Source of the DNA: an uncultured Nitrososphaerales archaeon
Lineage (GTDB): Archaea > Thermoproteota > Nitrososphaeria > Nitrososphaerales > Nitrososphaeraceae
NCBI GenBank assembly: GCA_963841565.1
Contig: CAWJCY010000006.1
Location: forward strand, 1 to 64,000
Length of the DNA stretch: 64,000 bases
Direction: 5' to 3'
A program made the translations under genes and the position numbers. The notes beneath the pieces are model-generated. The model made no database searches and was not told the DNA's origin. It worked only from the letters and a program-made list of their open reading frames with translations. This document shows positions 44,760-47,537 of this stretch, piece by piece. How positions within the stretch are numbered: position 1 is the stretch's first letter; each line of letters starts with the position of its first letter.

Positions 44760-47537
44760 CTAATTACCGTCTTGTCTCCGTCTCCGTTATTGTCTCCGCC
44801 GTCTCCGTCTCCGTCATTGTCTCCGCCGTCTCCGTCTCCACCTTCGTCAGCTGGAGGAGCTGGCTGCTGCACCTTGTTCAGCTGGAGGTGGTTGAGGAGC
44901 CTCACATTGATTTGTGTCAGGATTTAGAACTTCAGGAGGAGTACATTGAGGTGGAGGTGGTTGAGGAGCCTCACATTGATTTGTGTCAGGATTTAGAACT
45001 TCAGGAAGTATACAAACTGGAGGTGCTTCACCACCGGCTGGACCTGCTAATTGCTGTTGCTGTTGTCCACCTGGAGGTGCTTCACCACCGGCTGGAGGTG
45101 CTTCACCACCGGCTGGAGGTGCTTCACCACCGGCTGGAGGTGCTTCACCACCGGCTGGAGGTGCTTCACCACCGGCTGGAGGTGCTTCACCACCGGCTGG
45201 AGGTGCTTCACCACCGGCTGGAGGTGCTTCACCACCTGCTGGAGGTGCTTCACCACCGGCTGGGCCTGCTAATTGCTGTTGCTGTTGTCCACCTGGAGGT
45301 GCTTCACCACCGGCTGGACCTGCTAATTGCTGTTGCTGTTGTCCGCCTGGAGGTGCTTCACCACCTTCGGGAGCTGCTAATTGCTGCGCGACTCCAGCGG
45401 CGCCAGCAGCACCGGTTTCTACTACTTGCTGAGGATCTGCACCACCAGCTGCTGCTGCTCCTGCTGCTGCTGCTGCTGCTGCTGCTGCTGCTGGATCCGC
45501 ACCAGCTGCTGTTCCTGCCGCTGCGGCTGCTCCTGCTGCTTTACCTGCTGCTGCTGCTGCTGCGGCTGAGCCTCCAGCCTGTTCAGCTGCTGCTGCTGCG
45601 GCTGCTGCTGGATCTTCACCGGCTGCTGCTGCTGCTGCTGCTGCTTCACCGGCTGCTGCTGCTGCTGCTGCCGCCTGACCAGCTGCTGCTGCTGCTGCTG
45701 CAGCTGGATCTTCACCGGCTGCTGCTGCTGCTGCTGCTGCTGCTGCTGCGTCAGTTGCTGTAGATGAGGCTGCTGCTGCGGCTGCTGATGCTGCTGCTGC
45801 TGTTGCGGCTGCTCCACCTCCAGCTGCTGCTGCTGCTGCTGCGGCACCACCTGCTGCTGCACCTGCTGCTGCACCACTACCGGATGCTGCACCTGCTGCT
45901 GCTGCTGCTGCTGCTGCACCACCACCGGCTGCCGCTGCTGCCGCTGCTGCATTACCAGCTGCTGCGGCTGCTGCTGCTGCTCCGCCACCTGATGCGGCTG
46001 CGGCTGCGGCTGCACCACTACCCGCTGCTGCTGCTGCGGCTGAACTACCAGCTGCTGCAGCTGATGCCGCTGCCCCTGCTGCGGCTGCTGCTGCTGCTGA
46101 GCCACCAGCTGAAGCTGCGGCTGCGGCTGCGGCCTGCCCAGCTGCTGCTGCGGCTGCGGCTGCACCACCGCCACCTGATGCGGCTGCTGCTGCGGCTGCG
46201 CCTGCTGCACTTCCTGCTGCTGCTGCTGCTGCAGCGCCACTACCACTTGCTGCTGCGGCTGCTGCACTTCCTGCTGCTGCTGCTGCTGCTGCTGCACCAC
46301 CACCAGCTGATGCTGCTGCAGCTGCGGCTGCACCACCGGCTGATGCTGCTGCGGCTGCTGCTGCTGCCACTTCCTGCTGCTGCTGCTGCTGCAGCGCCAC
46401 TACCACTTGCTCGCTGCTGCTGCTGCACTTCCTGCTGCTGCGGCTGCTGCGCCTGCTGCACCACCACCGGCTGCTGCGGCTGCTGCCGCAGAGGAACCAC
46501 CAGCAGCTGCGGCTGCGGCTGCGGCTGCACTGCCTGCTGCTGCTGCCGCGGCTGCACCAGCGCCACCACCACCAGCTGCGGCTGCGGCTGCTGCTGCGCC
46601 ACCACCAGCTGCTGCTGCGGCTGCAGCTGCTGCTGCGCCACCACCAGCTGCTGCGGCTGCGCTGCGCTACCACCAGCTGCGGCTGCGGCTGCAGCAGCTC
46701 CTGCGGCTGCGGCTGCTGCTGCGCCACCACCGGCTGCGGCAGCTGCGGCTGCTGCTCGCCTGACTAGCTGCTGCTGCGGCTGCTGCACCACCCCACCACC
46801 ACCACTGCGCAGCTGCGCTGCACCACCACCGGCTGATGCTGCTGCTGCCGCGCTGCGCTTCCTGCTGCTGCTGCTGCTGCTGCACCTCCTCCAGTTGCTG
46901 CGGCTGCAGCTGCTGCAGCTCCTGCGGCGGCTGCTGCTGCTCCTGAGGCACCTGAAGCTGCTGCGGCCGATGCTGCACTGCTTGCTGCTGTCGCAGCTGC
47001 TGCGCCTGCTGCGGCGCCTGCACCTGCTGCTGCGGCTGCTGCTGCGGCTGCGCCAGTATCAGTAGCTGCTGCTGCGGCTGCCGCCGAGGCGGCTTCCCCT
47101 CCAGAGGCGGCTGCAGCTGCGGCTGCACTGCCTGCTGCTGCGGCTGCTGCTGCTGAACCTCCAGCTGCTGCTGCTGCAGCTGCACTGCCTGCTGCTGCCG
47201 CTGCCGCTGCATCCCCTCCAGAGGTGGCGGCTGCAGCTGCGGCTGCACTGCCTGCTCCTGCCGCTGCTGCTGCTGCCGCGGCTGCGCCTCCTCCTGCAGA
47301 TGCTGCTGTTGCTGCTGCTGACGCGGCACTGCCTGCTGCGGCTGCTGCTGCGGCTGATGCTCCAGCTGCTGCTGCTGCCGCGGCTGCTGCATCACCGGCT
47401 GCTGCTGCTGCTGCAGCTGCCGACCCGGCAGCCACTGTTGCGTGTATTTGGTTTAAAGGCACTACCTGGAACCCTAATGCTCCCAGTGTTATTGCTATTA
47501 GTACGTACGTTGGAAATGAAGTTGTTTTACTAAGCAC
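44760..47537 (-). CDS. Large secreted poly-Ala/Gly (silk-like) protein with Pro/Gln repeats, two Cys modules and acidic tail; several apparent frameshifts
   Basis: GTG start with TATA 47560-67, signal peptide, ~2 kb of (A)5-12 blocks split by G/GG/GS, then AGGEAPP repeats; reconstructed across ORFs 46764-47630, 46240-46791 and 44847-46730. Confidence 0.75.
45073..45261 (+). repeat. 9 x 21-bp coding tandem repeat (AGGEAPP on the minus strand)
   Basis: GGAGGTGCTTCACCACCGGCT x9, one copy with a single substitution. Confidence 0.95.

Follow-up and report, generated by a model that had tools for sequence, protein, structure and literature searches.

A candidate exported poly-alanine block protein and its relatives in a genus of ammonia-oxidising archaea

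Layout of the locus and of the encoded protein

The window analysed here is a stretch of 64,000 nucleotides (nt), positions 1 to 64,000 of contig CAWJCY010000006.1, from the assembly GCA_963841565.1 of an uncultured Nitrososphaerales archaeon. Between positions 47537 and 44760 its minus strand holds a gene for a low-complexity protein of about 920 residues dominated by short blocks of alanine. The gene itself is real, and its product carries a signal peptide for export. For the fuller explanation, in which the protein is exported by the Sec route, lacks an anchor, and associates with itself as a matrix or coat, and in which errors account for the breaks in the deposited reading frame, we judge the chances evenly balanced. 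The host was proposed from the sequence to be an ammonia oxidiser, and its genome (13 contigs, 2.05 Mb, 88% complete, 4.4% contamination) carries archaeal amoA (PF12942, 393.4 bits against a cut-off of 25.6; G000:C1:126011–126559, without stops). The encoded protein is organised as a signal peptide, an Ala-block core, a Gln/Pro-rich spacer, two Cys-loop modules, and an acidic tail.

The gene runs from a GTG at 47537 to a TAG at 44760–44762 and spans 2778 nt as deposited, or approximately 924 codons after allowing for C-terminal insertions and deletions (indels), close to the length of about 900 residues estimated in an earlier sequence-only reading of the window. The whole gene lies on the minus strand, where every feature described by that reading was recovered in place, including the TATA box, GTG start, and signal peptide (47569–47439). 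The TATA-like box, read from the sequence at 47560–47569, has its centre some 27 nt before the start codon (47535–47537); such spacing in archaeal promoters fits a leaderless transcript, and the arrangement here would be compatible with one. Translated flanks indicate that the stretch upstream of the start is kept in orthologs. The start position is occupied by GTG in four relatives (L017, L018, L019, and L022) and by ATG in L016, and an independently called metagenome fragment, P0008, begins with MLSKTTSF. The 33-residue signal peptide (MLSKTTSF...LIAITLGALGFQVVPLNQIHA; 47439–47537) has a basic, Lys-bearing n-region, a hydrophobic core, and small residues at positions −1 and −3, the features of Sec export, and is kept across orthologs and paralogs; cleavage is predicted after IHA.

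The Ala-block core extends over about 2 kb of GCN frame, in which alanine runs of 4–11 residues (mode 7–8) are separated by linkers of 1–5 residues, mostly GS, GG, GGG, GGGG, and GQ, with G, SGSG, GEDP, and GADP also represented. The blocks, linkers, and late caps described earlier are thus all present. Core part 1 (46853–47438) is in frame with the start and comprises 195 residues with 70% Ala and 16 blocks; it is followed by a broken zone (46368–46852) of five short frame segments and six frame switches, and by core part 2 (45432–46367), which comprises 311 residues with 71% Ala and 27 blocks, the later of them capped by GEDP, GADP, or GQ. The two long in-frame stretches contain 70–71% Ala and 14–16% Gly, with a mean block period of 11.7–11.9 residues. 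For the whole core we estimate roughly 55–60 Ala7–9 blocks, 16% Gly, and about 70% Ala, a proportion that arises because the linkers are only 1–5 residues long. The 659-residue core of an intact ortholog contains 6 Thr, 8 Asp, and 3 Asn, and has irregular linkers and a mean period of 11.3 residues; overall, the mean period is 11.3–12.5 residues.

At the C-terminal end of the core, a junction, QQVVETGAAGAAGVAQQL, leads into the Gln/Pro-rich spacer (45015–45431), which includes nine GGEAPPA repeats (45071–45263; Tandem Repeats Finder period 21, 9.2 copies, 98% matches). Two 14-residue Cys-loop modules of the form C-x2-P-x-V-x-N-P-x-T-x2-C lie at 44973–45014 and 44904–44945 and here read C-x2-P-E-V-L-N-P-D-T-N-Q-C. 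The number of modules is two in the window and in four relatives, four in one relative, and 11 in another, with a range over copies of 1–11. The acidic Asp/Gly/Asn tail (44760–44862) ends at the TAG once a base missing after 44771 is restored, and tails of the same acidic kind close the orthologs L005, L006, L007, and L015. The complete C-termini of eight orthologs and paralogs all finish in acidic tails and contain no hydrophobic stretch, and the complete C-terminus of L005 gave no NCBIfam match to an archaeosortase-type sorting signal (PGF-CTERM, PEF-CTERM, and similar). The exported protein is accordingly predicted to be unanchored, with neither a membrane anchor nor a sorting signal. A hydrophobic-looking 19-residue end of the deposited frame arises after the missing base and vanishes with the C-terminal corrections.

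The gene differs from its surroundings in composition, with a G+C fraction of 0.57–0.73 against 0.35–0.44 in the flanks and 0.38–0.41 in the contigs of the genome. Tandem Repeats Finder reported a period-3 array at 45448–47420, a 54-nt array at 45239–45386, and a 27-nt array at 44774–44839. Archaeal terminators are oligo-T runs, and a terminator-like T7 run, read from the sequence, lies at 44728–44734 on the same strand, approximately 26 nt after the stop codon.

Conservation, coding strand, and taxonomic range

Evidence that this is a single exported poly-Ala protein rather than noise, as had been proposed, comes from its relatives, which keep the Ala frame and the order of the blocks. Compared block by block with five sequences of the genus, the window protein shows 83–89% identity to four and 72% to a C-terminal fragment. 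Between the window and the closest intact ortholog, from genome G009, substitutions at codon positions 1, 2, and 3 number 9, 11, and 87, respectively, with 80 synonymous and 18 non-synonymous changes among the changed codons; in the ten pairs compared, the third base differs in 27–41% of Ala–Ala columns. The third-position excess of about 9:1 between species shows that selection acts on the protein, and the order of the Ala blocks is kept by purifying selection. Codon choice is also distinctive, with GCA accounting for 169 of 220 Ala codons in the gene as compared with 177 of 476 in the other long frames of the window.

The third-position test is blind to strand, because a GCN repeat read on the opposite strand also encodes alanine with the same wobble position. 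The minus strand is instead fixed by the conserved start, the signal peptide, and the non-repetitive C-terminal modules, and by the Ala frame being the only one that is open over 768–816 codons. The check proposed earlier, whether relatives keep the Ala frame, thus has a clear answer: it is open for up to 780–816 codons in many-contig assemblies. That the opposite strand or a different frame is the coding one, or that the region is a non-coding GC-rich triplet repeat, has a negligible probability, since, despite long opposite-strand open frames, such as those of 433 and 421 codons, and a wobble position that does not discriminate between strands, relatives are open over the full length in the minus-strand Ala frame only, the start, signal peptide, and modules belong to that frame only, and stops cut the antisense frames into pieces of 235–275 codons. 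The antisense open frames on the plus strand of the window (44888–47592) read as poly-Ala/Pro, poly-Leu, and poly-Cys and reach 433 codons; annotation could mistake these frames, which merely reflect the GCN periodicity, for genes.

Homology searches place the family in one genus. With an intact ortholog as query (expectation value E ≤ 1e-10), the genus gave matches in 11 of its 13 other genomes, and the 187 genomes from 17 sister genera gave none; a C-terminal 194-residue query matched 8 of the 13, with one weak match (E 4.5e-4) in another genus. A homology-free scan for the codon pattern A7-G-x0-3-A7-G over 201 genomes gave 13 matches in the window's genome and matches in 11 of 13 genomes of the genus, in two other genera (2 of 7 genomes and 1 of 4, respectively), and in none of the 176 genomes of the remaining 15 genera, whereas the reversed-pattern control gave no match in any of the 201. 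The tallies of these homology and codon-pattern searches, and of the order-wide scan described next, include the unpublished genome G013, which is also the source of L016 with its ATG start and of the single-contig, full-length intact ortholog. Extended to the order, the codon-pattern scan was positive in all five sampled genomes of the genus. None of the remaining 106 genomes of the family matched, and neither did any of 177 genomes from 18 further families; one more family gave single matches in 2 of its 112 genomes. Outside the genus, the pattern picked up small secreted peptides that are rich in His and Tyr and carry three A7GDS units, as well as a single irregular protein rich in Ala, Ser, and Thr.

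Two of these small secreted peptides, L037 (G060:C95) and L038 (G080:C21), come from another genus within the family and consist of a His/Tyr-rich stretch of the HRNHHHYNYGHHNNHHHGSHG type followed by the three A7GDS units; they may be metal-binding.

TH5896 is a placeholder genus of the GTDB, and an excerpt of PMC12625717 counts it with the Nitrososphaeraceae of highest abundance in floodplain sediments. One of the carrier records is archaeon TH5896 itself, and the poly-Ala family probably marks this genus. By homology, the family appears confined to, and expanded in, one uncultured soil and sediment genus of Nitrososphaeraceae. A sequence-word search of public sequencing runs gave best shares of 0.24–0.36, in soil and freshwater-sediment metagenomes, with none reaching half; we base no statement about habitat on these shares.

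Members of the genus carry several copies per genome and several paralog types. Complete stop-to-stop paralogs of 816, 559, 429, and 437 codons lie inside contigs. The first (L031) combines APPTEGG repeats with a distinct Cys loop and a tail of Asp and Asn; the second and third (L032, G009:C274, and L033, G005:C128) have linkers bearing Tyr, Lys, and His (GKYGS, GHYGS, and GGDNGYKKYGKDRSS), which could allow cross-linking, and GGEGG-type tails; and the fourth (L034) has NGGYSS linkers, DSGTTT repeats, and a SEPE tail. All four types follow a common plan of signal peptide, Ala-block core, hydrophilic spacer, and acidic tail, with 9–22 Asp and Glu and 0–9 Lys and Arg in the last 60 residues, and each carries 0–1 N-glycosylation sequons. 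Together with P0001, a 390-residue metagenome protein, we regard these paralogs as true relatives: they are alike in type of signal peptide, Ala-block core, and acidic tail, and some share the Cys module, whereas they differ in their Tyr/Lys/His linkers, their Thr/Ser-rich or APPTEGG spacers, and one other Cys loop. All are unannotated.

Searching with the C-terminal region returned at least seven protein matches. Among the matches listed, P0001 alone is truly related, by way of its Cys modules; the others were discounted, as their similarity reflects Pro-rich repeat composition. P0001 has a signal peptide, an acidic/Pro spacer, and five tandem Cys-loop modules plus one variant, followed by a C-terminal domain of about 190 residues that has no Pfam match and is unrelated to the window protein. 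Because P0001 uses the module before an unrelated domain, the Cys loop can be seen as a reusable linker in other secreted proteins. A HMMER search of 1.84 billion representative sequences gave 28 matches at E ≤ 0.001, among them eight short proteins of 46–160 residues (P0008–P0010, P0022, P0025, P0027, P0029, and P0031), seven of which match the N-terminus of the query. Three further matches, P0033, P0023, and P0024, were set aside as unrelated repeat proteins.

The window's genome has one other open reading frame (ORF) with at least two runs of five or more alanines, at 9475–9789 on the minus strand of contig 13 (L002:1497–1796). Its 100-residue product has a signal peptide, alternating Asp-rich stretches, two Cys, and four Ala4–8 blocks, matches no Pfam family, and looks like a miniature of the same design.

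Frame breaks, transcription, and neighbourhood

The frameshifts noted in the sequence-only reading are present in the deposited sequence. A frame-path analysis resolved eight segments (47537–46853, 46852–46793, 46792–46758, 46757–46661, 46660–46413, 46412–46368, 46367–44863, and 44862 onward) and hence seven switches, at approximately 46852, 46792, 46757, 46660, 46412, 46367, and 44862. Relative to metagenome contigs, one more base is missing after 44771, giving eight disruptions in total. Six of the switches fall inside the 485-nt zone at 46368–46852, and the frame is the same on either side of it, so that the net shift is zero. At the break near the 3' end (44847–44863), four surplus nucleotides at 44859 create a premature TGA (44847–44849) in the deposited frame. 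The alignment to the closest intact ortholog (L019 of G009; 87.6% identity over 2298 columns) contains gaps of 1, 2, and 4 nt inside the broken zone, whereas all gaps outside it are multiples of three or are compensated within 3 nt. At the 3' end, the window has a gap of 23 nt relative to two orthologs, where the repeat unit is 24 nt.

Broken frames follow the type of assembly. In a family-wide protein search, stops occurred in 0 of 20 match rows from assemblies of at least 210 contigs and in 7 of 8 rows from assemblies of 20–100 contigs (G001, G003, and G012); the window itself contributes two rows, both split pieces. The Ala frame is open for 768–780 codons to the contig end in L027, L029, and L030, which lie on k141_ contigs of Nitrososphaerales archaeon TH5896 or TH526. 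It breaks after 436 codons in L025 (a contig of 173 kb) and after 48 codons in L028 (1.16 Mb), both from isolates of uncultured Nitrososphaerales archaeon with MFD names and 'contig_' contig names; L026, on a k141_ contig and close to its end, has a stop after 73 codons. According to excerpts of the source papers, the TH metagenome-assembled genomes (MAGs) were built from HiSeq 2x150 reads with MEGAHIT (PMC7603488), and the Microflora Danica (MFD) genomes from deep Nanopore sequencing (PMC12313526). The window's genome, with its 13 contigs and 2.05 Mb, is presumably also a long-read assembly.

Near-identical sequences from short-read metagenomes offer a comparison at individual sites. Logan contigs of two DNA runs (X1 and X2) and two RNA runs (X15 and X16), all from samples other than that of the window's organism, were compared with the window outside 45448–46401, 46826–46931, and 47144–47355, three core stretches that have no cover because repeats were skipped. 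The 4 nt at 44859 are left out in X1 (depth 10.3/10.3) and X2 (8.4/11.3), and one G is inserted behind 44771 in both (10.3/10.3 and 6.77/6.77). With both C-terminal corrections, the frame runs through the Cys modules and the acidic tail to the TAG at 44760–44762. In X1, one base is inserted at 46660 (6.94/15.8) and one is left out at 46757 (4.96/4.96), each exactly at a switch site.

Because many-contig relatives are open, few-contig relatives are broken, and short-read contigs correct four of the eight sites, the frame breaks are most likely assembly errors; we consider it highly probable that all eight are consensus errors of a long-read assembly and not biology. Some observations count against this explanation and against the intact gene that it implies. 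The equation of few contigs with long reads is documented for the MFD-named records only; RNA-run contigs covering 44859 lack the 4-nt omission (0/41.7 and 0/47.1 depth); the extra base at 46660 is found in part of the X1 depth and in none of X2, X15, and X16; and the intact form is known from relatives and near-identical environmental contigs, not from this organism.

The alternative is a decaying pseudogene, in which the breaks are real and no full-length product is made here while relatives remain intact. The seven switches and one missing base of the deposited sequence, the RNA-run contigs over 44859, and the size of the host genome (2.05 Mb, 88% complete), the lowest among the near-complete genomes sampled from the genus, all speak for it. 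Neutral decay would, however, be expected to scatter breaks and replacements, whereas six of the eight breaks fall within 485 nt with no net shift and the other 2.3 kb shows only triplet indels and the strong third-position excess. Breakage of this kind, which all few-contig assemblies show and all many-contig assemblies lack, and the near-identical short-read contigs that are intact at four sites, also argue against decay, which we regard as improbable.

The broken zone also concentrates GCGC tetranucleotides, with 12 of the gene's 20 lying at 46368–46855 and several exactly at frame-switch sites. This clustering resembles the trace that would be left if GCAGC motifs had lost single A bases in a consensus sequence.

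There is a hint that the gene is transcribed. Contigs of the RNA runs X15 and X16, two metatranscriptomes of one study, match unique parts of the gene at 47429–47526, 44919–45003, 44977–45042, and 44908–45006 with 0–1 differing letters; these contigs are strandless, and DNA carry-over in the libraries is possible. No RNA-run contig fell on 44600–44811, where both DNA runs have cover.

The neighbouring genes encode a winged-helix regulator, a short-chain dehydrogenase, a phosphatase, and a radical SAM protein, and synteny with relatives is seen downstream only. Directly downstream lies a 120-codon ORF (44147–44509, minus strand) that matches no Pfam family; its position is kept in at least one relative (L005 1300–1700 against window 44552–44151, 87% identity).

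Possible role and comparison with known poly-alanine proteins

AlphaFold2, run with a six-row alignment, modelled the core as 16 helices of 11–28 residues that are broken at Gly runs, with predicted local distance difference test (pLDDT) scores of 55–70. The Pro-rich repeats scored below 50, which suggests that in the model the spacer is a disordered or extended chain, and each Cys module formed a beta-hairpin with pLDDT of about 90, in agreement with a second model, made for a complete C-terminus (86–90). Poly-Ala tracts have, in an excerpt of PMC9620824, a strong helical propensity and aggregate via helical contacts, tempered by flanking Gly and Pro. A three-copy complex prediction for the first 300 residues of A1 scored 0.01 against a mark of 0.42, which is no answer and carries no weight either way. 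Pfam (E ≤ 1) recognised no family on the window pieces and gave only a chance-level CBM_14 match (E 0.3) on the intact L019, L015, and L005. No NCBIfam family and no chain of the PDB matched by sequence; fold searches of the PDB returned nothing at E ≤ 0.001 for either a 506-residue model, whose best matches (E 3.5–8) were designed helical repeats, or a C-terminal 142-residue model; and the ESM Atlas held no usable match.

In our view, the protein most likely associates with itself outside the cell as a matrix or coat, with an acidic end that would keep it soluble and bind cations. The functions put forward in the sequence-only reading, namely a fibre, a biofilm matrix, a coat, or a protectant against ice or desiccation, are likewise conjectural. 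Poly-Ala block proteins are known as structural materials of animals, in silks and shell matrix. In the scheme proposed here, the protein would be exported, lose its signal peptide, and behave like a block copolymer of amphiphilic character. Its Ala-block domain, which is uncharged and possibly helical in solution, would self-associate and could stack into Ala-zipper or beta-crystallite arrays, while the proline spacer, the disulfide-stapled hairpins, and the acidic tail would stay hydrated, keep the protein dispersible, and perhaps bind cations or the cell surface. The cells would in this way be surrounded by an extracellular matrix, sheath, or coat. This sequence from export through block copolymer to matrix is proposed tentatively, at a little under even confidence as a whole. 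Its self-association step is purely conjectural, the AlphaFold2 model of the core is of low confidence (mean pLDDT 58.6; predicted template modelling score 0.32), and the unrelated neighbours lend it no operon logic.

A more specific and less probable version of the matrix role, which we regard as possible, is a convergent archaeal 'silk', a family of amphiphilic block copolymers that dominant ammonia oxidisers of soil and sediment, belonging to one Nitrososphaeraceae genus, would secrete: Ala7–9 blocks with tight Gly turns would stack into poly-Ala crystallites or Ala-zipper arrays to form fibres, films, or a hydrogel sheath, with the hairpins and tails tuning solubility, cross-linking, and cation binding. 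If true, this would be the first natural prokaryotic poly-alanine-crystallite material, with a crystalline fraction far above that of any animal silk.

Rather than building a matrix, the protein could serve as a surface-bound spacer or cation trap, in which the Ala region forms a semi-flexible stalk and the spacer, hairpins, and tail bind cations (Ca2+, NH4+, or metals), minerals, or the S-layer. Cores and spacers differ among the paralog types, and the acidic tail alone is retained in all of them; the count of Cys modules ranges from 1 to 11 between copies, as is often the case with spacers; and in P0001 the module stands as a tandem linker before the unrelated 190-residue domain. We nevertheless consider this role unlikely, as the protein has no membrane anchor or sorting signal to hold it at the cell and its core of about 660 residues is conserved block-wise, beyond the constraint expected of a mere spacer.

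The conserved, exported, 70%-Ala protein family is new to the literature as searched. Since its carriers include MAGs of the genus TH5896, reported as abundant, the matrix or coat protein that we favour could bear on how major soil nitrifiers shape their surroundings, attach, and survive drying or freezing. For materials science, the family offers short natural designs in which Ala7–9 blocks alternate with turns of one to four Gly; some of these designs include Tyr/Lys linkers, and all have a solubilising tail. The gene is hidden three times over: short-read assemblies break inside it, long-read assemblies garble it, and composition filters mask it. For these reasons, the largest protein collections hold almost only N-terminal fragments (46–125 residues), which fits the earlier suggestion that low complexity and indels conceal such a gene from annotation; whole families of like kind may be overlooked similarly.

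The sequence-only reading had likened the protein both to silks and to type I antifreeze proteins, and had put forward that no archaeal equivalent was described. A literature search likewise found no described archaeal protein of this poly-Ala kind. The antifreeze likeness was not upheld. Type I antifreeze proteins, including the long 'Maxi' form, share with the window protein an Ala content above 60%, predicted helices, and a period near 11 residues. Unlike them, the window protein has no regular Thr/Asx array, is interrupted by Gly at each block, is far larger, and carries Pro, Cys, and acidic modules; no PDB chain matched it by sequence. With regard to a long uninterrupted amphipathic helix, the core is modelled, at low pLDDT, as helices of 11–28 residues with breaks at Gly runs.

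An ice-binding, antifreeze, or desiccation-protectant role akin to the Ala-rich helices of those proteins is, in our estimate, slightly less probable even than pseudogene decay. In its favour, proteins with more than 65% Ala are otherwise mainly type I antifreeze proteins, the block period of 11.3–12.5 residues is near three helical turns, and the core is modelled as helices. The habitats of the carriers probably freeze and dry out. These carriers are MAGs of Nitrososphaerales, an order which an excerpt of PMC7603488 describes as terrestrially ubiquitous. Such a role is opposed by the count of 6 Thr among 659 core residues, by the Gly breaks every 7–9 residues and the irregular period, and by a Pro spacer, Cys modules, and acidic tail that have no counterpart in antifreeze proteins.

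The comparison with silk holds in part. The Gly-rich segments of spidroins are about 20–30 residues long. Like major ampullate spidroins, the window protein is secreted and has repetitive poly-Ala blocks of similar length and non-repetitive ends. It differs in showing no homology to them and no spidroin N- or C-terminal domain (Pfam and PDB sequence searches), in having linkers of 1–5 residues where spidroins combine poly-Ala with a long GGX/GPGXX unit, and in belonging to an archaeon, which has no spinning organ. The silk-like or fibroin-like label therefore stands for the length of the Ala blocks, but not for long Gly-rich segments or spidroin terminal domains. A like set of ingredients is that of MSI60, a 'silk-like' framework protein of the mollusc shell; this secreted matrix protein has blocks of poly-Ala and runs of Gly, together with acidic stretches rich in Asp and cysteines at its termini. 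MSI60 is an animal protein, the likeness is one of composition, and nothing ties this archaeon to mineral formation. The window protein thus resembles spidroins, type I antifreeze proteins, and MSI60 in composition only.

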